From: Craspedostauros australis
Taxonomy: Eukaryota
Length of the DNA: 64,000 nt
Reading direction: 5' to 3'
Assembly: GCA_030167865.1 (NCBI GenBank)
Contig: JALAGF010003803.1
Coordinates: 1-64,000, forward strand
Shown: one piece after another, positions 32,500 through 51,373 of the stretch
Layout of the letters: every line of letters begins with the position of its first letter
Position numbering within the stretch: the first letter of the stretch is position 1
The notes under the pieces: model-generated
Told to the model about the DNA's origin: nothing
The model's input: only the letters and a program-made list of their open reading frames with translations
Databases searched by the model: none
Made by a program: the position numbers and the translations under genes

Positions 32500-33417
32500 A
32501 TGTTGATGAGGGCGATCCGGTCGTCTCTCTTCACCGCCCATGTGCTGGCGGCCAGATCTTTGTCGACCACGGCATTCACGCCTGCCGTAGTTGCCTCCAA
32601 TCGCGTACTTGTCCATCCGCACGGCACGAGTACGGACAGTGGCAGCGACAGCGACAGCTACAGCAACGGCAGTCGAGTCAGCAACGCCTTCATCTCGCAA
32701 CCTTCCCATCGTCACTATTCATCCACTTCCTTGAGCGCTCAATCCCAGGCATCCAGCAGCAGCAGCGATGGGGAAGCCGAACAATCCCGCCACCGACAGG
32801 AGCAACGGGAGCTGATCCAAACCATCCGCAGCACGCCTCTGCTCAATGCCAACGGCGAGCTCTCAACCCTTCAATCTCGTTGGAACAAGGACAAGCCCAC
32901 CGTCGTGGTGTTCTTGCGCCATCTCGGATGAGCCTACTGCTGGTCGTACGCCAACGCATGGTGTGCCGATCAGCAGCAGCAACAGGAGCAAGCCGCGGAT
33001 CAAATCAACGGGCCTTTCTTCATCTCCATTGGCAACGCCGCCAAATTGAATGGTTTCTTGGAGGCCAACCCCAACGTGCCGCGTGATCAGATTTGGGTCG
33101 ACGACTTTGATTTCGAATTGTACAAATCCATGGGATACCGCTCCTTCCTGGAGCGTCCAGACGATGGTCTGAAGCTGAAAGTGCGAGTGCCATTCACCAC
33201 GTTGGGAGAATACGTGAAGTACTTCCGAATCTTCCTCAAGCTGGCGCCCTTCACGGATGATCTGGGCTTTGGCGAGTTGCCACCCGGCGGATTGGTCAAC
33301 GGAGGAACCATCGTGATTCGGGATGATCAGATTGTGTACGAATGGAAGGATGCGCTGCCAGGCGATTATCCGAATGTGCAGGATGTGATGGATGCGGCGC
33401 TGGAGCGTGAGCAGTAG
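32500..33417 (+). CDS. Peroxiredoxin-like (PRXL2/AhpC-TSA_2, SelU-type) selenoprotein; in-frame TGA 32929-32931 read as Sec (UxxC)
   Basis: ORFs 32500-32931 and 33046-33417 share a frame and are separated by one TGA, giving VVVFLRHLG-U-AYCWSYA...FFISIG...LYKSMG...GGTIVI...PGDYP. Confidence 0.88.
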
Positions 33418-33474: not shown

Positions 33475-33582
33475 CCAAGGGCATTTTGGAATGACAGCAT
33501 TTACAGACGACAATCAGCAAACATGCAGCAGTAGTAGGATTGATTGATTGTTCAAGGATGTGCTTGATCGCAAAAGACTTGG
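33475..33582 (+). promoter_or_regulatory. Candidate non-canonical SECIS element for the PRXL2-like gene
   Basis: AUGAC (33491) opposite UGAU (33565), lower stems UUUUG/CAAAA and CCAAG/CUUGG, upper stems AGCA/UGCU and GACAAUCAG/UUGAUUGUU; folded by eye; no canonical AA spacing. Confidence 0.4.
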
Positions 33583-37515: not shown

Positions 37516-37900
37516 TTGTTCGCCGTTGGAATCAGCTATTGCTCTGAGTTGCACGTGGAGTTACATACGATAGATCGTACACTATTATTATACATGCTCA
37601 ACGCAACAAAGCTCAAATCCGATTCATAAAAATACGAGGATTGCGGTTGGGAGAAAGGCAGAGCGGCTCATGTATAGGAGCACCATCCGAGGACGAGTCC
37701 GAGTACGCGTACAATACTTCAACAAGCTTACGGGCCGTTGAGACTGCAGCAGCATCTTGTGCGCAAGTAATACCTCAAGTCGAAGACATCCCTGCATTTG
37801 CGCATCACTTCCTCTCTCTCTCTCTTACACACACAGAGACACAGACACAGACACGCACATACAAATCCATCCAAGAACACACATCTCCCGCATCGACGCC

Positions 37901-39944
37901 ATGTCGTCATCACCGTTGAGCGCGTGCAGCTCCGGTCCCATAGCAATGAATGAGGATGCGGGTGGCCTGTGTCACACCAGTAATGAGAATGGGAGCGGCG
38001 ACGACGATGATATGCTCATTGGTGGCAGCAAGGATGACATGCCCAACACGAAGCCGCGTCCATTCAGCCTGCTCAAATCGTTCATCGGAGAATGCATCTG
38101 CGAAGTCATGCCATCAACGGATGGCAAAGGGCTCAGTGCCACATCGCAGTTCGTTGAGTTGCATGGATTACAGTATATCAGTCTGGGTGCCGTCACGGAT
38201 GAATTGACGCCGAAGCAACGCATCAAGGATACGTTGGAACATCTGGGCACGCAGGTGGAACGACTCGTATCGATCGGTTACTTGGTGGATGATGACGATG
38301 ATACTTCTGCCAGTGGTACCGCTGGTGGTGGCCGTGCAAAGAAAAGGGCGGAATCGATTCCGCTGGAAGTTTGGTCGAGAGCCTATCCCAACGATCGGAA
38401 TATGTCGAAATCGGTCTTGCGGAAGGTGGAGAAATTGAAGGTATGCAACGAATAGTGTCGCAGCAACAAAATGAGGTGCTGGTGGCAACACAAATGGCAA
38501 TAACGATTGTCATTGCAAAGTATGCGGGCGCTGATTTGAGTGACAACGTTGCAGTCATCATGAGGAATCGTGTGGAAGGGGCGGGAGCAACAAGTGCGGT
38601 GCGCATATCGACTGCTCAATGTTCATTAAGTTCTGCCATCTTCATCCGGTCCGATCTTTCGCGGTATGCTGCGATGGCATCCACATCTCACCCACATCTT
38701 CTCCCGCATTCGCCGTACTTTATTCAACACTTGGTTTGCGGTCATTTCCATTCCCTCACATCTACGTACCGCATGTTCCACCCAACTCTCACATCCCAGG
38801 CAAAACAATTCGGATCCGTCCTCAATGATTTTCGCAAGGATCTGGAAGCCCAGCAGAGTCGCCCACTACGAGATAGCAATTTCTTTCGCATTGGCATTTC
38901 AGCACACAACGTGGGCGTTGTGGCCATGCTGGCGCAGCGGGATGAGCTTGTGGTTCCATTCTTTCAGGATGCCGTGCGATTCAAGAAGGAGGCATACGGA
39001 GCGGACCATCCGGAAGTTGCGGTATGTTCTGCCCAGTCCTGCTCTCGTCTGCTCTGTTACGGGTTTGCTTTGTTTCCTGTCATCGTTTTCTGTGCATGTG
39101 TGTCTCTGTGCGTATGCGTGAATTCGATTGCTGTGCAGGGTATGGCAGGAAAGCATCGCAATCTCCAGTGCTGAAACTTCATGCACAGGACATGTTCTCA
39201 CCACACAAAAACAACGACCATACCATCCTCCATCCGCTTTTCTTCCTTTTGCGGGTGTCTGCACCTCATAGATCTCATTGGATGAGCTCGGCATTCAACT
39301 CTTCGCGCGCGAGAAATTCGAGCAAGCCTTGGCCCATTTCACCGACGCCCGAACTATCCGATTGAGCGCATTTGGACAATTCCATCCGAAGGTGGTCATG
39401 AGCCTCAACAACATTGGGTGCTGCAACTACCAGATGGGAAATCGCGAAGCCGCCGTCATGAGTTTGCAAGAAGCCAACGACGCCGTGCAAACCAACTTGG
39501 ATTCTTCTGGTGGTGCGGCCAAAGCCAGCATCGAGTTGCTGCACAAGGCTATTCTTCTCAACAATCTCGGGTACCTCAAATTGAGCTTGAAGCAGTATGA
39601 GGGCGCGCGTACCTTGTTCGACGAAGCATTGTTGGTACGTGAAAGCGATGCGCACGTCTTTCGTTTGCTTTGCTTCGATTTGGATTACATTGCAGTATCT
39701 CGTCGTCGTCGTCGTCGTCGCCACCATCAAAACTGCTTTACTCCTGTTCTCTCGTCATTTGGTCATCCAAATTTCTTCAACCGTGCTCTGCGAGCACCGC
39801 TACCTTCGCATCTCACCTCTTCCATTCTCCTTCACCCTACTTTACTTTCAGATACAACAATCCGTCCTGGGTGACGCCCACACGCACAGAGCCATCCGAG
39901 ATACCAGGAGCAACCTCGAATTCACCAATGCCTTCCACTCGTAG
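37901..39944 (+). CDS. Tetratricopeptide-repeat protein (kinesin light chain-like TPRs); exons 37901-38440, 38800-39021, 39272-39634, 39852-39944
   Basis: YGADHPEVA-ISLDELG, FGQFHPKVVMSLNNIG, LLNNLG; three phase-0 GT-AG introns reconcile the overlapping ORFs. Confidence 0.85.
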
Positions 39945-46212: not shown

Positions 46213-46742
46213 CGACTGGAGTTGAACCCTCCTCTTGCTCTTGCACGTTGTGGCGCTTGTTGCATGTTGTTGTGGAATTCGTGGCGGCGCAAAAAATGAG
46301 CACGATTGACTCTCTCGACCACATGTCACTTGGAACGAAAACGGGACTGGCACAAGAAGTCGACATGGAGCAATCTTGTTTCCACGTGATTGAATGAAGC
46401 GGATCGACTCACTTGACCACAACGCCACGCAAAGTTCGTGTCATCGCGAAAACTCGTTTTTTGCCCTCTTCTTTCTTGCTTCTTCTTGTTTTGGTTCGGT
46501 TGCTTGCTTGTCACAAAAAGTGCGCGGAAAGTTACGTGGACTGCACACAAAACAGGGCTCCGACAAATGCAACAACAACGGAGCTCATTCCGCCACAGAG
46601 TTGCAATACCCAAGAGAACGGCGCCAATCAGCTGGAGGGAGCATGGAAACAAGTAAGAAAGCGTCCATTGCATGTGCATGAAGTCAAGCGCCCATTGAAG
46701 CGGATCGCAGAACAAGAGACGAAGACAGGAAGAGGAAGACAG

Positions 46743-49148
46743 ATGAAGAGACCATCAGCATCCACCACGGCTCTGATTTGGAGAAGGATCCTGGGCCAAC
46801 GCGCGCTTCAAACAAATGCGCCATCTGGTGGTCAGGTGTGTTCGCTTTGGCCATCCTCATGGCCTGCATACATGCACCACGATGGTGCTGACGCAACCGC
46901 CCATCCAAACCATTCGCGGACATGCTCCCGACCTCGGACATGCGTGCGATCGTCGTCGAGGAGTTTGCATCACGCCTTCCAACCACATGCGAGGTCGTTG
47001 GTTGAGCCGAAGCGACGCGCCTCATCTCTTGCAGCTTCGCCTGCCGACGGCGATACCTCAGAAGCTGCGTTACCGCATCTGTTGGATAGCCGCAACAGAA
47101 TTGGCAATGGCAACAAAAGCGGCGTTGGTGACGACCAGCAAACCCACAGCCACGCTGTTCCGCAACACCTGTTGCAGAGCACGCTGCACCACAAAGAACT
47201 TTGGTTGAAAGATGCCTTGGACAGCAATCCAGAGATTGTGACGGTCTCTGCGTTGCATCATGTTCTAGAAGCATTGAGAGACGCAGCGAATACGACCCCA
47301 GACACAGCTGTGCCATATCGAGCAGAAACATGGTTGTCCAGATCAATAGCGGTGGGGATGCTGCCCACATCACACTGCTACCAACTTGTCATCGAAGCAT
47401 GGTGCTGCTGCAGTAACGCATCTGCAGCGACAGTCATCGATCGGGCGGAGCATTGGTTGACAGAGTGCACACGCAATGCAGTTGCAGCATCGGAGCGTCG
47501 TCATGATGTCAATGATGCTAGCTGTATTACAGAACGCAACAGCAATAGCAACAACATCAATGGCGACTGCAACAATATCAACGGCAGCAGCGACAGCAGC
47601 AACAACAGTTTCGACTCCACAATCAACCCCACCATCGCTTTGTACAATGCGTATCTGGATGCCTGCACGAGAAGACGGAACGCCGGAGGTGGTCAGGACC
47701 GTCAGAAACGTATGCTACAGTACGCACAAAAGGCAGATGCCGTGCTGATGCAGCTCATCACAGCGCATCGCGAAGGCAACGATGTCAACGCGGCCGTCCC
47801 AACGACCCAGACCTTCAATTTCGTTATTCGAGGCTGGGCGCGTTGCAAGCGTGACCGTAGCAGTGCGGAACGCGTACAGAAGCTCGTTGCCCTCATGGAG
47901 GCGTTGCACAATCAAGATCGGGCCAATTCGCCTGCTGGTCCCAACACCAAGACGTACGCCATGGCAATGGATGCCCTCGTCAACGTTGCCAAGCAGAAGG
48001 CCCAGCAGTCGCACGAAGCCAACAGTGGCTTCATCAACGATTCTTCCATCAACGGGATCGATGAGATGCGCCAGGCGCGTGCCATTCTCGACCGATTGCA
48101 CGAATCGCAACAGGATGGCAACACGGAGGCGGCGCCCAATACTGTCACCTACAACATCCTGCTGACCGGTTGGTCGGCCCTGTCATTTTCGCAGCACAAA
48201 GATGCACCCCTGGAAGCAGAGAAGCTCTTGCAAACCATGGTTGACATGAAGAGAGCGGTTGACACATGCAATATCGCACCGAACCGGATATCCTACGAGA
48301 AGGTCATTTCAGCCTGGATCAATGCCGCGTCCGAAGACTCCGGCGAACGCGCCACATATTGGCTCAAGGAGCTATGGGAATTATCCGAACTGGAATCAGA
48401 TCGCACCTACCTGCCATCCAATCGCACGTACAACACGATACTCAAAACACTCCTGCTGCTGGATGGTCCGGAAGCCGCGGAAGATCTCCTGTTCCTCATA
48501 TACGAACGCTTCTACCACGAGAAGGACCCATCCCTCTGCCCCAACTCCGAATCCTTCTCCCTCGTCATCCAGGCTTGGGTCGATCGTGCCGAACGCCACA
48601 GCGACCTGGAGGTCCGTCTCGCAGCCCTCGAACGGGCGTCAGAATGGCTCAAGTCGGTGCAACAGATCGAAGGAGAACGCAATGTCTCGACGACATCCAG
48701 ATCGTACCTCAGCATCCTGCAAGCCGCGAGCCGAGCAACGACGCGCAGTGAGAATGATCTGCGGGCCAACGTCATCGCGCTGGAGACGTTGCAGGACTTC
48801 AAACGCACCCGGTTCGACTTGGACCCCCAGGCCTACGTACTGGCGCTGAAGGTGACGATGCAGGCCTTGGGCAGGGCCCCTCGCGGTCAGAAGGATGTGT
48901 GGTTGGCGTCGCTGATGGATCTGTTGCACGATTGCTGCAACGAAGGGTTGATGTGTGCTGCCGCGGTGCGAACGTTCGCCAATGTGCACTGGAGCAAGGA
49001 CGGTGCCTGGACACGCGCCGAACGTGACCAGGTGGTCAAGCGCTTCTTTTCCGAGTGGCCCTTGCCATCCTCGTGGACGCGCAAGTTAAAATTCACGCAG
49101 TTTCTTCCTCGCAAGGAAGATCTGCAGCGGAACTGGGGAAAGAAATAA
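46743..49148 (+). CDS. Pentatricopeptide-repeat protein, probably mitochondrial
   Basis: Repeated PTTQTFNFVIRGW, PNTKTYAMAMDAL, PNTVTYNILLTGW, PNRISYEKVISAW, PNSESFSLVIQAW; start uncertain (ORF opens at 46413). Confidence 0.88.
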   Translation: MKRPSASTTALIWRRILGQRALQTNAPSGGQVCSLWPSSWPAYMHHDGADATAHPNHSRTCSRPRTCVRSSSRSLHHAFQPHARSLVEPKRRASSLAASPADGDTSEAALPHLLDSRNRIGNGNKSGVGDDQQTHSHAVPQHLLQSTLHHKELWLKDALDSNPEIVTVSALHHVLEALRDAANTTPDTAVPYRAETWLSRSIAVGMLPTSHCYQLVIEAWCCCSNASAATVIDRAEHWLTECTRNAVAASERRHDVNDASCITERNSNSNNINGDCNNINGSSDSSNNSFDSTINPTIALYNAYLDACTRRRNAGGGQDRQKRMLQYAQKADAVLMQLITAHREGNDVNAAVPTTQTFNFVIRGWARCKRDRSSAERVQKLVALMEALHNQDRANSPAGPNTKTYAMAMDALVNVAKQKAQQSHEANSGFINDSSINGIDEMRQARAILDRLHESQQDGNTEAAPNTVTYNILLTGWSALSFSQHKDAPLEAEKLLQTMVDMKRAVDTCNIAPNRISYEKVISAWINAASEDSGERATYWLKELWELSELESDRTYLPSNRTYNTILKTLLLLDGPEAAEDLLFLIYERFYHEKDPSLCPNSESFSLVIQAWVDRAERHSDLEVRLAALERASEWLKSVQQIEGERNVSTTSRSYLSILQAASRATTRSENDLRANVIALETLQDFKRTRFDLDPQAYVLALKVTMQALGRAPRGQKDVWLASLMDLLHDCCNEGLMCAAAVRTFANVHWSKDGAWTRAERDQVVKRFFSEWPLPSSWTRKLKFTQFLPRKEDLQRNWGKK

Positions 49149-49391
49149 GCTGCAACGTGGCGCATGCATTTGCTCTGAAGTTGAGTTGGACATACTTAGT
49201 CAAAAATACGCTTCAATTCACCACTACGTACGTAGAGAGGCGCAGTCGCTTGAGTATCGTAAGCTTTCAATGTTTACCAAGACTACCGATACACTGTTCT
49301 CCTACAGTAAATTGCTCTCTATTCTACAAGTACCTATCCCAGAGAGCAGAGTAGGTAGTATTGGTTGAATGATCCACAAAGGTATTTGCAC

Positions 49392-49451
49392 ATTGTGCTT
49401 GTCGGATGGACCTTGACAGTAGGCCAAGAATGTCTATCGTCATTCGACAAT
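49392..49451 (-). promoter_or_regulatory. Candidate non-canonical SECIS element for the MSP-like gene
   Basis: Minus strand AUUGU-CGA-AUGAC-GAUAGAC-AUU-CUUGGC-CUACU-GUCAAG-GUCCAUC-CGAC-AAGC-ACAAU: helix I, GA/GA core and helix II; folded by eye; no apical AA. Confidence 0.4.
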
Positions 49452-49591
49452 CGAGCAAAATGAAACGTGGATCTGATTCTCGAATCTCACGTTGCTTTCC
49501 TTTGGTGACCTTCAGATTTGTGCTCCATGCGCACATGCGTGCATACATGGTGCGGTGTTGTGTCGAAGGAACAGCGCTTCACCGCTCTATT

Positions 49592-50657
49592 CTACTTCGA
49601 TCGTTGATCGTATGCGTACAGAGCTGGAGTGATGAAGGGGGACGGAAACAGCGACCGAGAGATATCGGCGTGCGAAGTATGGGTTGAGCGGTGGAAGAAA
49701 CGGGGCAGACAGACATCATGTTAGGTAGCCGAATGAATGGAATCTGAATGAATGGAATGAACGAACCGATCATCGTACAACTGTGGTACAATCGCGCCGC
49801 CACATTCATTTGTTTGCTCAATACCAACACTCACCATACAGCACCGCCCCAACGTATGCCATCGACGACGCCGTCGCATGCGGCAACGCTGCAAACGCGG
49901 CCGACGCCACGCCGCTGCGCAACGCAGAACCAGCATTCATGACGTTGACCCTGTCCAAAATCGCGCGGGCGACATCTGGATCCTCGATGCGGGTCATACC
50001 CGTACCATCGACGTCCCAAACGCCAGCCTGCGCGATATTTCACAGACCCGTGCGCGACGAATCCCTGTATCCGGCCGCAAAGAAGAGCGGCAGCACGACG
50101 AGGAATCGCGTGGCGAAGTCCGTATCTGTGATGGCCGTTACGAAGGCGTAGGCAGCTGCGACGTAGGTCGCTTTTGTGCCGGCCTCGGAGCGTCGCTGGC
50201 GTTCTTCCGGGCCGATATTCTGCAAGTTCCGTGCGGCTTCTTGACGCAGGCGGGCAGTTTCTTCGGGCGATACTGCCTTGGATGGATCGCCGTCCTCCAT
50301 GAGGAAGCCGTATTTGACGGTCTTGCCTTCTTGGAGACCCATCATATCCAAGTACGGAAGCAACCAAGACATGAGTCCAGTATTCTTGAATGGCTCCTTT
50401 GGTTGTTCTGACCCAGACGATACAGCTTTCGTCAGTAATGGCGTTGACGTCGGCGTTGACGCCGTTTGTGTCTCTTCATCAGCTGTTGGAGTGGATCCGA
50501 GGCGGAACGACGCCGATGTCGACGTCAATATCGATGAAGCCTGGGAAGAACCCGTCGATACCATCCGTTGTGGTACCATCGGTGTGAATGCACCTGCTTG
50601 TTGAGATGCACACACGATGGCGACCATCGCCCCGACGGCAGCTGATCGGACCTTCAT
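49592..50657 (-). CDS. Plastid-targeted membrane selenoprotein (MSP-like); in-frame TGA at 50042-50040; exons 50657-49835, 49623-49592
   Basis: Frame continues past the TGA: SRTGL-U-NIAQAGVWDVDGTGMTRIEDPDVARAILDRV... then a GTGAGT...CAG intron and ALYAYDQRSK*; upstream NIGPEERQRR plus two TM helices; presequence QQAGA-FTP. Confidence 0.82.
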
Positions 50658-51373
50658 GGTGATGCTGAGGTGTGGAGGCGGTGACACAATCTGGCAACTC
50701 GAAATAGCGCACTGGTCAATTTCAGTTTCTTCTCAAATAATGTGAGCTGGCCTCTTGCACAGCGTCGGTGTCCGTTTCGGCTCCTTGAGAAGCATTACTC
50801 TTCATCGCGATCTCGGTGAACGATGACGACGACGACGATGATGACGCTTTCACCGACAACACTTGTCTGGAACTGTCCACATCATCGAAGGAAAGAACGG
50901 TTGTGACCATTGCGTGGTTGGTGTTGCGTTGTTGTTCTGTTGTGTGGTGGTTGATCTCGATGCGTCAGAACATGAGACATTTCTGAAACGACCAATCGTG
51001 TGTGACTCAATCGACTTCATAGTCGTACAAGAAACGAATCCAGAACTGCAACTGAACCAAATTGCCGAACCAACAAACGAGGTTGTCGTCAACACCAAAC
51101 AACGAACACCAACATCAACGTCAACATCAACATCGATCGGGATTCGCAACTGCACAACCCGAACATCCAGGAGAGATCCAGAGAAGAAAGAAAGAGAAAG
51201 GAAGAGTCCTTGCGGATTGCCTTTGTTCCAATCCAACCCAATTCAAGTCAATTCAAGTCAATTCAATTCACTTCACTTCGGTTGATCCCATAGTTCCTCT
51301 ATTCCCCAAGCACAGCAAAGTCCCATCAAGCGCAAGAACAAACGCACTTCCAGTGCATCCAACAATCACCACA

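Follow-up and report, generated by a model that had tools for sequence, protein, structure and literature searches.

This locus raises the question whether the TGA at which its public protein ends is a stop or a codon for selenocysteine (Sec) and, in the latter case, what kind of membrane protein the gene encodes. The gene lies on the minus strand of a 64,000-nt stretch of Craspedostauros australis DNA (contig JALAGF010003803.1, positions 1 to 64,000), referred to here as the window. An earlier note, made from the letters of the window, had read it as a plastid-targeted membrane selenoprotein similar to the algal MSP family. From the evidence presented below, the annotated stop TGA is most likely read as selenocysteine, the product being a membrane protein of 284 residues that starts with an import signal of plastid type.

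Gene model and transcript

The open reading frame listed at this position (50040..50687, minus strand) opens with a GTG; as the earlier note had described, it comprises 215 amino acids and ends with SRTGL followed by TGA. Counted from the first ATG (50657), the frame contains 205 amino acids before the TGA, which is the single in-frame TGA of the gene and constitutes codon 206 (Table 1). The public protein for the locus (P0001) is this 205-residue form, ending at the Sec codon. When the TGA is read through, the frame goes on as NIAQAGVWDVDGTGMTRIEDPDVARAILDRVNVMN..., followed by hydrophobic segments in the translation, and the 78 codons after the TGA are open. Enumeration of GT..AG pairs gave an intron of 211 nt between a GTGAGT donor and an acceptor ending in CTCCAG. 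After splicing, the coding sequence of 855 nt encodes 284 amino acids with one Sec at position 206, and the C-terminus reads ...AVLY-ALYAYDQRSK before a TAG. This C-terminus is similar to that of the homologues (e.g., ...VVYAALYFFKDD... in P0002).

The splice was seen exactly in a 960-nt contig of the public run X1, in which 49835 is joined to 49623 and 211 nt are skipped (CT..AC on the plus strand). This run is labelled 'RNA? (a guess)' and no run is recorded as RNA; the contig is nevertheless spliced. Over the TGA it agrees with the window letter for letter, and the spliced transcript keeps this codon. Exon 1 is covered by the X1 contig over 50470..49835 and by a second contig over 50472..50750, and the X1 contig extends to 49300, leaving a 3' UTR of at least 292 nt. 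The open frame past the TGA with its hydrophobic segment, the clean GT-AG intron and the final TAG, all read by the earlier note, are present in the window, and the intron is present as an exact joint in the transcript contig. Compared with the public protein, the corrected product is 79 residues longer, and both its most strongly conserved region and the selenocysteine fall within this addition.

Within the same window, a second candidate Sec gene was noticed at 32500..33411 (motif RHLGUAYCW), which gives indirect support for a Sec machinery in this genome, and no tRNA genes were found.

Table 1. Coordinates of the gene features, in positions of the window
Feature	Position	Strand	Evidence
Exon 1 coding, 823 nt, codons 1-274 and first base of codon 275	49835..50657	-	Translation, contigs
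N-terminus resembling a signal peptide (residues 1-23, last letters QQAGA; Phe24 at +1)	50589..50657	-	Sequence, hydropathy
Transit-peptide-like, low-confidence linker, residues 24-90	50388..50588	-	Composition, pLDDT
Pre-Sec helical hairpin: helix 150-176 after NIGPEERQRR, helices 181-185 and 188-203	50049..50210	-	AlphaFold2, hydropathy
In-frame TGA (codon 206), most likely decoded as selenocysteine	50040..50042	-	Homologues, transcript contig
Post-Sec conserved module N207-D226, N-I-A-Q-A-G-V-W-D-V-D-G-T-G-M-T-R-I-E-D	49980..50039	-	Alignment A3, AlphaFold2
Second helical hairpin, residues 241-256 and 260-273, running into exon 2	49839..49937	-	AlphaFold2, hydropathy
Intron, 211 nt, GTGAGT...CAG	49624..49834	-	GT..AG enumeration, run X1 contig
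Exon 2 coding: completes A275, encodes LYAYDQRSK, stop TAG at 49594..49592	49592..49623	-	Splicing, homologous C-termini
3' UTR, at least 292 nt	49300..49591	-	Run X1 contig
Best SECIS-like candidate, weak	49386..49458	-	Own SECIS scan

Conservation of the in-frame TGA and search for SECIS elements

Related loci were retrieved from metagenomes by means of a peptide pattern, Q[AS]G[LVM]WDVD, whose position downstream of the TGA makes the retrieval independent of that codon. A TGA stood at the aligned codon in 73 of the 74 loci, the 74th (L074) being a short match that was not placed by the motif search. For the 151 database proteins compared at the Sec site, 96 ended just before it, 2 began just after it, 22 had a Cys and 11 a residue written as 'W'. 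One of the latter is in fact a TGA, as P0012 is identical to locus L004, whose codon is TGA. The Cys form, G-L-C-N-I-A-Q at the site aligned to codon 206, occurs in P0002 and 21 other proteins, and full-length Cys homologues have identical or near-identical residues after the Cys position. Since the family is overwhelmingly TGA-encoded in marine metagenomes, gene callers usually cut its members.

The earlier note had proposed to check the conservation of the peptide after the TGA, and this peptide proved to be conserved across the family, where it is among the best conserved parts. In alignment A3, G204 was invariant and L205, N207, Q210, G212, W214, D215 and G220 were conserved at 90% or more; I148, E152, R155 and R156, located before or in the first pre-Sec helix, were also invariant. 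The invariant family motif is S-x3-G-L-U-N-[IV]-A-Q-x-G-x-W-D-V-D-G-x-G, represented in the window protein by G-L-U-N-I-A-Q-x-G-x-W-D-V-D-G, and one conserved Sec was found in 25 family loci translated by read-through. In most stramenopile-type homologues, the first and second helices are separated by a DDGGxxGH insert, which the window protein lacks. As read from the sequences, the conserved in-frame TGA is far more than chance would give.

The search for a SECIS element in the 3' UTR of the window gene itself gave no convincing structure, its sole AUGA...GA stem-loop being weak and atypical. The strict first version of our own scan returned no candidate and was judged too strict, and a relaxed version (any base before UGA, AA or CC motifs) found nothing better than this stem-loop (Table 1). 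It has AUGA at 49443..49440 and GA at 49403..49402, a helix I formed by AUUGU/ACAAU and UUGC/GCAA, a helix II of 7 positions with one A.C mismatch, an AUU bulge where the AA motif is expected (AA being absent), a 6-bp upper stem and a 5-nt loop. The candidate was not significant, as 42 of 300 shuffled UTRs gave an equally good one; its fold z-score was only -1.56, and it ranked 199 of the 258 sites on its strand. The same form, with a short helix II and no AA, was seen at 33491-33567, near the second candidate Sec gene. The candidates of an energy-only scan were rejected as long-range artefacts. The Rfam SECIS models had no match in 48900-50800, nor any at E ≤ 10 when 49290-49600 (311 nt) was searched. 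Elsewhere in the window, a SECIS-like match was observed at 38472 on the plus strand, after an ORF (37670..38455) whose only TGA is upstream of the likely start.

Homologues gave clearer elements. Textbook type-II SECIS structures were present 40-280 nt past the stop in L018, L039 and other homologues, green-alga-like ones among them, and a strict scan of the family detected a SECIS in 23 of the 69 loci with enough 3' sequence. In a small search, Rfam SECIS_1 matched L018 at 26.2 bits (E 0.0019), below the gathering score of 35; no match was obtained when 20 homologue loci were searched together. Rfam also found nothing in L004, L005 and L032, which are stramenopile-type homologue transcripts with the same TGA, so that its silence is uninformative for stramenopile-type members. 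The SECIS elements of the family could not be aligned with MAFFT.

A true stop at the TGA would leave a 205-residue protein with two helices and make the downstream frame a relic. The public protein of the locus has exactly this length, and the lack of a significant SECIS in the 3' UTR of the window gene would be in line with it. However, a relic agrees poorly with 78 open codons past the TGA leading to a confirmed splice and a homologous C-terminus, with a post-TGA motif that ranks among the best conserved of the family, with the same arrangement in 73 of 74 related loci, and with the long 3' UTR kept in the mRNA. We therefore regard termination at this codon as highly improbable. The reading of the gene as a selenoprotein, put forward in the earlier note, is strongly supported by the conserved TGA, the Cys homologues, the conservation after the TGA, the SECIS elements of homologues and the spliced mRNA. 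It is quite probable that this diatom-type alga has at the locus a real selenoprotein gene of the nucleus, with a public model that stops at the Sec codon and a product destined for a plastid membrane.

Presequence, membrane topology and predicted structure

Residues 1-24 are MKVRSAAVGAMVAIVCASQQAGA|F, with the putative cleavage site Q-Q-A-G-A|F-T-P. The putative signal peptide has a hydrophobic core at residues 5-17 and a hydropathy peak of 1.93 over residues 1-22. It is followed by an S/T-rich and acid-poor stretch (residues 24-63), in which 16 Ser/Thr stand against 2 basic and 3 acidic residues, the latter at its end. A Phe at position +1 of the cleavage site, followed by a stretch rich in Ser and Thr and poor in acidic residues, is the hallmark of diatom plastid presequences. 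Presequences were judged by eye and with a crude regular expression; by a strict pattern, at least 71 of 117 homologue N-termini showed a signal peptide with an xF site, and inspection by eye added further ones. The green-alga-like homologues have long N-terminal extensions rich in Arg, Ala and Ser. Thus, the AGA-F motif reported in the earlier note is present (AGA|F, residues 21-24), and the signal peptide, this motif, the S/T-rich stretch and their recurrence in homologues support plastid targeting in silico. As the presequence suggests, the signal peptide would be cleaved before Phe24 upon entry into the ER, and the transit-like stretch would then mediate passage into the complex plastid.

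The earlier note had also called the plastid a compartment not usually linked with selenoproteins, which fits the report on Ostreococcus tauri: in the part of it cited here, none of the 24 selenoproteins had a chloroplast transit peptide predicted by TargetP (PMC8834552). The same prediction could be taken to favor another location for the window protein, in the ER or secretory system or in the periplastidial space, all the more as plastid import is deduced from sequence motifs. We consider such a location decidedly unlikely in view of the Phe at +1 and the S/T-rich, acid-poor stretch, a pattern that recurs among the homologues (at least 71 of 117), and of the extensions of the green-alga-like homologues. 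If the presequence works as read, selenium-dependent redox chemistry would take place in a plastid membrane, unlike the predictions for O. tauri in the cited part of that report (PMC8834552). Such chemistry, should the presequence be functional, would bear on why marine phytoplankton need selenium, and U206 offers a defined target for knocking out, or for replacing U by C, in a diatom that can be transformed.

The membrane nature of the protein, also claimed by the earlier note, finds support in AlphaFold2 and hydropathy, which together predict four hydrophobic or helical stretches. The AlphaFold2 model had a mean pLDDT of 82.3, with a core above 90 and residues 1-80 at 48-63. The helices of the pre-Sec hairpin were modelled with pLDDT above 90 and agree with the hydropathy segments 162-177 and 179-199. 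In the post-Sec module, the model shows a short helix (207-211), a strand (213-215) and the D-x-D-G-x-G loop, and Sec206 stands directly before the short helix, as its N-cap. From this model, the mature protein would be an integral membrane protein with two helical hairpins and a small N-terminal soluble domain packed against the loop that connects them; Sec would lie at the membrane surface, right after the second helix. Foldseek found no matching fold in the PDB (best E 0.81), and a wide VIA-align search gave helical bundles (best Z 6.1), within noise for helical models. A sequence-profile search of the PDB gave only a dockerin repeat (4uyq_B), which was not significant (E 1.7).

Identity of the family and comparison with known systems

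At E ≤ 1e-3 the family comprises 283 representative proteins, of which 129 remain at E ≤ 1e-10. A Pfam search with the window protein gave no family at E ≤ 1, and 30 family members searched at E ≤ 0.1 gave stray single matches, none of them to PF11127 or to glutathione peroxidase (GPx). Prokaryotic relatives were not found with the pattern G[LV]CN[IV]AQ[AS]G, and a prokaryotic search with [IVM][AG]Q[AS]G[LV]WDV returned one locus (L076), on a contig labelled as a proteobacterial MAG. L076 contains the TGA as well as what appears to be an intron-like interruption, so that the contig looks like eukaryotic DNA placed in this bin. Word-index protein searches gave 2 and 6 matches, none informatively named, and the ESM Atlas, queried with P0002, returned unnamed eukaryotic clusters (Bacillariophyta, Chlorophyta) at 0.85-0.87, under the lead level of 0.9. 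The window gene is a new member of an algal family that is probably already catalogued; this family is widespread, and we can only infer its function.

The earlier note had placed the gene near MSP, a predicted membrane selenoprotein of unknown function described in Ostreococcus, Chlamydomonas, Volvox and Dictyostelium (Lobanov et al. 2007, PMC2375036, as far as cited here). If the gene is the diatom orthologue of this algal and amoebal protein, the novelty is limited to the corrected gene model, and we give this an even chance. The window family and MSP, compared here by description only, share a predicted membrane protein without assigned function, a mostly Sec form and an occurrence in marine green algae (PMC2375036, same part). 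Also, the 24 selenoproteins of O. tauri include one 'Membrane selenoprotein' and one 'Unknown' (PMC8834552, Table 1), and the Sec forms of green-alga-like type have SECIS elements in the Ostreococcus style, with a G before the quartet and a long mini-stem (PMC2375036, same part). However, MSP is stated to have 'had two Sec residues', whereas the window CDS has one TGA and the 25 read-through loci one Sec; this sentence of the cited part may concern the Dictyostelium protein alone (PMC2375036). The same part gives no MSP for Thalassiosira pseudonana, whereas the window family is abundant in stramenopile-type sequences, many of them with plastid-type presequences. Finally, MSP occurs almost exclusively as Sec forms (PMC7539508), whereas 22 of 151 proteins of the window family have Cys.

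As to the chemistry, Sec would serve as a nucleophile in redox reactions, its activation coming from the helix dipole and from the neighboring invariant Asn, Gln and Trp. At the face of a plastid membrane, it could serve to reduce peroxides or take part in thiol or disulfide exchange, and because no resolving Cys is conserved, it would be recycled by a soluble thiol; the Cys variants of some species would perform the same chemistry less efficiently. This mechanism, modelled on residue types and secondary structure, is a tentative one that we consider possible, though short of likely. The glutathione peroxidase tetrad consists of Sec/Cys, Gln, Trp and Asn. By residue types alone, the window family resembles it in having Sec/Cys at the N-terminus of a helix and invariant Asn, Gln and Trp nearby. 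In contrast to the thioredoxin fold of GPx, in which the tetrad is spread over separate loops, we find a helical membrane protein with the four residues within 9 positions, and a GPx domain of thioredoxin fold was not recognized by Pfam, in the helical model or by the PDB fold search. It is quite unlikely, in our estimate, that the family is distinct from MSP altogether, that is, a group of plastid membrane selenoproteins without Pfam family and confined to eukaryotes, in which Sec-Asn-Gln-Trp has converged on the GPx tetrad beside a Ca-type loop and serves as a peroxidase or redox sensor. If this were true, marine algal plastids would contain, embedded in a membrane, a peroxidase or redox sensor for peroxides derived from lipids or quinones, and the protein would be the first selenoenzyme assigned to the photosynthetic organelle.

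Another function would be that of a real selenoprotein with a Sec not of the peroxidase type, which binds or relays a ligand: a metal, Ca2+ with switching via D-x-D-G-x-G, or sulfur or selenium in transfer. Sulfur or selenium transfer has been proposed for the Cys that ends the two-helix membrane domain of the YgaP type. This domain (PF11127/DUF2892) and the window family share a basic stretch, two membrane helices and a G-x-C at the membrane surface, and hhalign set the C-terminal 'G-F-C-G-M-A' of YgaP, within the region corresponding to PF11127, on 'G-L-C-N-I-A' after two helices, the YgaP Cys falling on Sec. The loop D-V-D-G-x-G-L-x-x-I-E-D was likewise aligned with the Ca-binding repeat of dockerin, and the absence of a conserved resolving Cys in the family would suit a ligand. 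Both likenesses are nevertheless statistically empty (dockerin E 1.7; hhalign probability 1.7% and 2.1%, with a YgaP profile of enterobacterial sequences only), and PF11127 matched 0 of 30 members at E ≤ 0.1, so that the YgaP link serves at most as a lead. Unlike the YgaP-like domain, the window family is without Pfam match or detected prokaryotic relative and has additional N- and C-terminal parts. Ligand binding or relay by this Sec is, in our opinion, unlikely.

A further comparison is offered by SelK and SelS, ER proteins with one transmembrane helix and, in a disordered tail, a Sec near the C-terminus. They share with the window protein the anchoring of a eukaryotic selenoprotein in a membrane, a single Sec and the lack of a resolving Cys motif. 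Unlike in SelK and SelS, the Sec of the window protein is in the middle of the protein, between two helical hairpins, in a highly ordered and conserved module, and is preceded by a plastid-type presequence.

Reading frame, transcript and conservation around the in-frame TGA

The 215-aa ORF described in the earlier note, ending at SRTGL-TGA with an open frame beyond, was found on the minus strand. It is the same frame as an ORF of 205 codons from an ATG (...GYRDSSRTGL), with its start taken at an upstream GTG. Past the TGA, this frame stays open through NIAQAGVWDVDGTGMTRIEDPDVARAILDRVNVMN and two more hydrophobic stretches, and splicing out 211 nt between a GTGAGT donor and a CAG acceptor leads to the C-terminus ...AVLY-ALYAYDQRSK and a TAG. 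Such a C-terminus is like that of homologues, e.g. ...VVYAALYFFKDD... in the database protein P0002. The spliced CDS has 855 nt and would encode 284 residues, with a single Sec at position 206.

The clean GT-AG intron also announced in that note was matched in a public run, X1, labelled "RNA?" by guess, in which 74% of the words sampled from 49150-50750 were present. From 50470 to 49835 a 960-nt contig of this run follows the window; it then resumes exactly at 49623 and goes on to 49300; the joint 49835|49623 appears as "skips 211, CT..AC" on the plus strand, which is GT..AG on the strand of the gene. No differing letters or indels between this contig and the window were reported anywhere, TGA included, and a second contig spans 50472-50750. 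The contigs are silent on expression level and transcript ends, but they show directly the intron, an mRNA that carries the TGA and a 3'UTR 292 nt long or longer. A third contig, on the opposite strand, comes from the convergent neighbour gene, whose ORF ends about 150 nt from the observed 3'UTR end; as this contig ends at 49216, the 3' ends of the two genes lie within about 85 nt.

With the read-through product as query, exhaustive HMMER searching retrieved 283 representative proteins at E<=1e-3; the number falls to 129 at E<=1e-10 and to 11 at E<=1e-30. Site sorting was performed on 151 proteins: P0001 (the annotated product of the locus), P0002 and 149 others. Among them, 96, including P0001, terminate right at the G-L (or G-V, etc.) before the TGA position, 22 read through with Cys at the aligned place, 11 with Trp and 1 with Ser, 2 begin just after the TGA position, and 19 were not placeable. 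The Trp entries (P0007, P0012-P0014, P0022, P0032, P0036, P0041, P0071, P0093, P0139) are probably gene calls under a TGA=Trp code and not real Trp variants, since P0012 is the letter-for-letter product of the metagenome locus L004, whose codon is TGA.

Metagenome contigs were scanned with the pattern Q[AS]G[LVM]WDVD, whose position downstream of the TGA rules out any selection for that codon. This gave 74 related loci, many of them near-identical copies from different samples, with TGA at the aligned codon in 73; the 74th is a short match, unplaced by motif search. No Cys codon was present at the aligned site among the 73 placed loci. Counting only distinct sequences, loci and proteins together give 63 windows of 50 residues around the site. 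Within a 45-member alignment (A3), I148, E152, R155, R156 and G204 are invariant, and L205, N207, Q210, G212, W214, D215, G220 and A230 are conserved at 90% or more. The post-TGA stretch, whose conservation in other diatoms the earlier note had proposed to examine, therefore ranks with the most constrained regions of the protein. Moreover, the family-wide Sec/Cys alternation falls at the invariant motif and, as judged from the alignments, this alternation and the conserved post-TGA stretch form the classical Sec/Cys signature. At this comparative level, the selenoprotein reading of the gene is strongly supported.

SECIS elements in the family and SECIS-like candidates in the window

To count in the in-house SECIS scan, a site needs [AG]UGA...GA and helix I, an unpaired AA and a helix II that is enforced; under strict settings, the scan detected a SECIS in 23 of the 69 loci with enough downstream sequence. 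In green-alga-like loci, it found a textbook type-II SECIS shortly after the stop. For example, the element of locus L018 comprises GUGAC, a 10-bp helix, GAAA, a mini-stem and CGAU, and reached 26.2 bits with Rfam SECIS_1 (E 0.0019, 151-nt search), under the gathering score of 35. With a G before the quartet and a long mini-stem, the elements of these homologues match exactly the Ostreococcus SECIS described in excerpts of Lobanov et al., 2007 (PMC2375036). Stramenopile-type transcripts (L004, L005, L032) have AUGAC...[U]GA[UA] stem-loops 30-90 nt past their stops, on which Rfam gave no match.

The gene itself offers a SECIS-like candidate (Table). Its helix I (AUUGU/ACAAU and UUGC/GCAA) is followed by an internal loop and the quartet, then by helix II, in which one of 7 positions is an A.C mismatch; an AUU bulge leads on to a 6-bp upper stem and a 5-nt loop. 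The candidate differs from the SECIS of homologues by the lack of the AA motif and by a helix II about 3 bp shorter. When the 3'UTR was dinucleotide-shuffled 300 times, the candidate was matched or beaten in 42 cases; its fold z-score is -1.56 (13 of 200 shuffles fold as well), and a crude energy score ranks it 199th of 258 sites on the same strand of the window. Without constraints, the 3' GA is base-paired in the minimum-energy fold, and Rfam returned nothing at E<=10 on the 3'UTR (311-nt search). The element is a SECIS candidate only, statistically indistinguishable from shuffled sequence, and the case for Sec at codon 206 is carried by the comparative evidence, not by the gene's own SECIS.

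A second candidate selenoprotein gene in the window shows an N-terminus (...ARSLSTTAFTP) that looks like the same plastid-type presequence, and a weak AhpC-TSA_2 match (PF13911, E 0.0024, 18.6 bits, cutoff of 27 not reached). The stem-loop past its stop has a UUUUG/CAAAA helix I and a helix II of only 5 bp, then a large internal loop, and departs from the canonical form in the same manner as the first gene's candidate. For the best canonical-looking match on the plus strand (AUGAG, 9-bp helix, AA at distance 13, mini-stem, UGAU), no selenoprotein gene was identified; the ORF ending 17 nt before it has its sole TGA upstream of the likely start.

Table. Coordinates of the features discussed in the text.
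Feature	Position	Strand	Description
Gene with in-frame TGA	50657-49592	minus	ATG at 50657; TAG at 49594-49592
In-frame TGA	50042-50040	minus	codon 206
Intron	49834-49624	minus	GTGAGT donor, CAG acceptor, 211 nt removed
SECIS-like candidate	49458-49386	minus	sole AUGA of own 3'UTR at 49443-49440; GA at 49403-49402
Convergent neighbour ORF	46413-49148	+	911 aa from TTG (table 11)
Second candidate selenoprotein gene	32500-33414	+	one in-frame TGA, VVFLRHLG-U-AYCW (UxxC motif)
AUGAC...UGAU stem-loop	33491-33567	+	77 nt past the stop of the second candidate gene
Best canonical-looking SECIS-type match	38472	+	in-house scan
ORF before the 38472 element	37670-38455	+	

Architecture, putative plastid presequence and proposed working

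No Pfam family matched the window protein at E<=1, and a search of 30 members at E<=0.1 gave no family shared by any two of them. A confident AlphaFold2 model from the 45-sequence alignment (mean pLDDT 82.3, pTM 0.67, blocks from residue 90 onward at 87-98) shows a signal-peptide helix (3-18), disorder to about residue 90, a small domain (helix 97-105, strands 112-115 and 119-122), an amphipathic helix 131-144, and helices 150-176, 181-185 and 188-203. In it, Sec206 directly precedes helix 207-211, which is short and is followed by strand 213-215 and a loop; helices 227-256 and 260-273 come last. By hydropathy, four moderately hydrophobic segments (162-177, 179-199, 244-258, 262-279) stand out, and they are stronger in homologues. 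With good support, the protein is inferred to be integral to the membrane and built of two helical hairpins. Most stramenopile-type homologues have a D-D-G-G-x-x-G-H insert, with a conserved His, between the first two membrane helices, and the window protein is without it (residues 176-183).

Foldseek against the PDB gave nothing (best E 0.81), and exhaustive structural alignment went no higher than Z 6.1, a score given by unrelated helical proteins. The only match of a PDB sequence profile search was a dockerin repeat on D-V-D-G-x-G-L-x-x-I-E-D...V-N (E 1.7), so that the D-V-D-G-x-G loop would be Ca-binding-type by pattern and not by statistics. The YgaP-type two-helix membrane domain (PF11127 in Pfam, at the C-terminus of E. 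coli YgaP) ends in G-x-C; hhalign of this domain against the family aligned the YgaP Cys on Sec at a probability of 1.7-2.1%. Two different patterns retrieved no prokaryotic relatives in 185,579 species genomes; the single match, L076 (410-532), is a family member with the TGA and an apparent intron-like break upstream, on a contig that is filed under a proteobacterial metagenome-assembled genome and is probably eukaryotic and mis-binned. At the edge of another family-bearing metagenome contig, L006 (1-86), there is a 5S rRNA gene (53.3 bits, 5' end cut).

Diatom bipartite plastid presequences are of ASAFAP type, with Phe at +1. The AGA-F motif claimed in the earlier note is present: residues 1-23 are signal-peptide-like and end in Q-Q-A-G-A, followed by Phe24, and the 40 residues after the predicted cleavage site contain 16 Ser/Thr, 2 basic and 3 acidic residues, the latter at the far end. 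By the ASAFAP-type definition, this combination indicates a plastid import signal. Among 117 homologues with a Met start and at least 70 residues before N-I-G-x-x-E-R, a strict pattern (hydrophobic run, small residue, Phe, within the first 50 residues) occurs in 71; many of the other 46 have an A-F visible by eye or are evidently 5'-truncated models. Green-alga-like members have long Arg/Ala/Ser-rich N-terminal extensions, organelle-type and not specific. The plastid presequence is thus supported in silico, and the import proposed in the earlier note stands as a prediction. Excerpts of an O. tauri proteomic study give a predicted chloroplast transit peptide for none of 24 selenoproteins (PMC8834552).

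With good support, Sec would be inserted co-translationally at the UGA. The N-terminal domain and the Sec loop would lie on the same side of the membrane, because both flank a helical hairpin, and this ERQRR-bearing side would probably be stromal according to the positive-inside rule. The glutathione-peroxidase tetrad consists of the same residue set (Sec/Cys, Asn, Gln, Trp) and, tentatively, the modelled Sec, which caps the N-terminus of a helix, might serve as a redox nucleophile aided by the invariant Asn, Gln and Trp. It is conceivable, if rather doubtful, that its substrates at the membrane surface are peroxides or thiols. Recycling would involve a soluble reductant, as no second Cys is conserved.

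Comparison with known selenoprotein families

We consider the chances evenly balanced that the gene belongs to the "membrane selenoprotein" (MSP) family proposed in the earlier note, a comparison made with published descriptions of MSP only. Like MSP, the family consists of membrane proteins whose function is unknown, and its Sec form occurs with an Ostreococcus-style SECIS in green-alga-like contigs; the 24 selenoproteins of O. tauri, as excerpted, leave only one "Membrane selenoprotein" and one "Unknown" slot (PMC8834552). However, excerpts of the 2007 paper (PMC2375036) attribute two Sec residues to MSP, detect it only in Dictyostelium, Chlamydomonas, Volvox and Ostreococcus, and do not include it among the 16 selenoproteins of T. 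pseudonana. Also, MSP is almost exclusively Sec in the corresponding part of the 2020 survey (PMC7539508), whereas Cys is found here in 22 of 151 proteins.

A full-text search found no paper describing a plastid-targeted membrane selenoprotein in diatoms, whose genomes have 20-44 selenoprotein genes each in the portion of the 2020 survey cited here (PMC7539508). Whether MSP or not, the family has very probably been catalogued before, because canonical SECIS elements accompany it in Mamiellales-type genomes. The gene is a mis-annotated, newly recognised member of a probably known kind, and its interest lies in its family, an uncharacterised and Sec-dominant membrane family that has no Pfam entry and offers an active-site hypothesis open to test.
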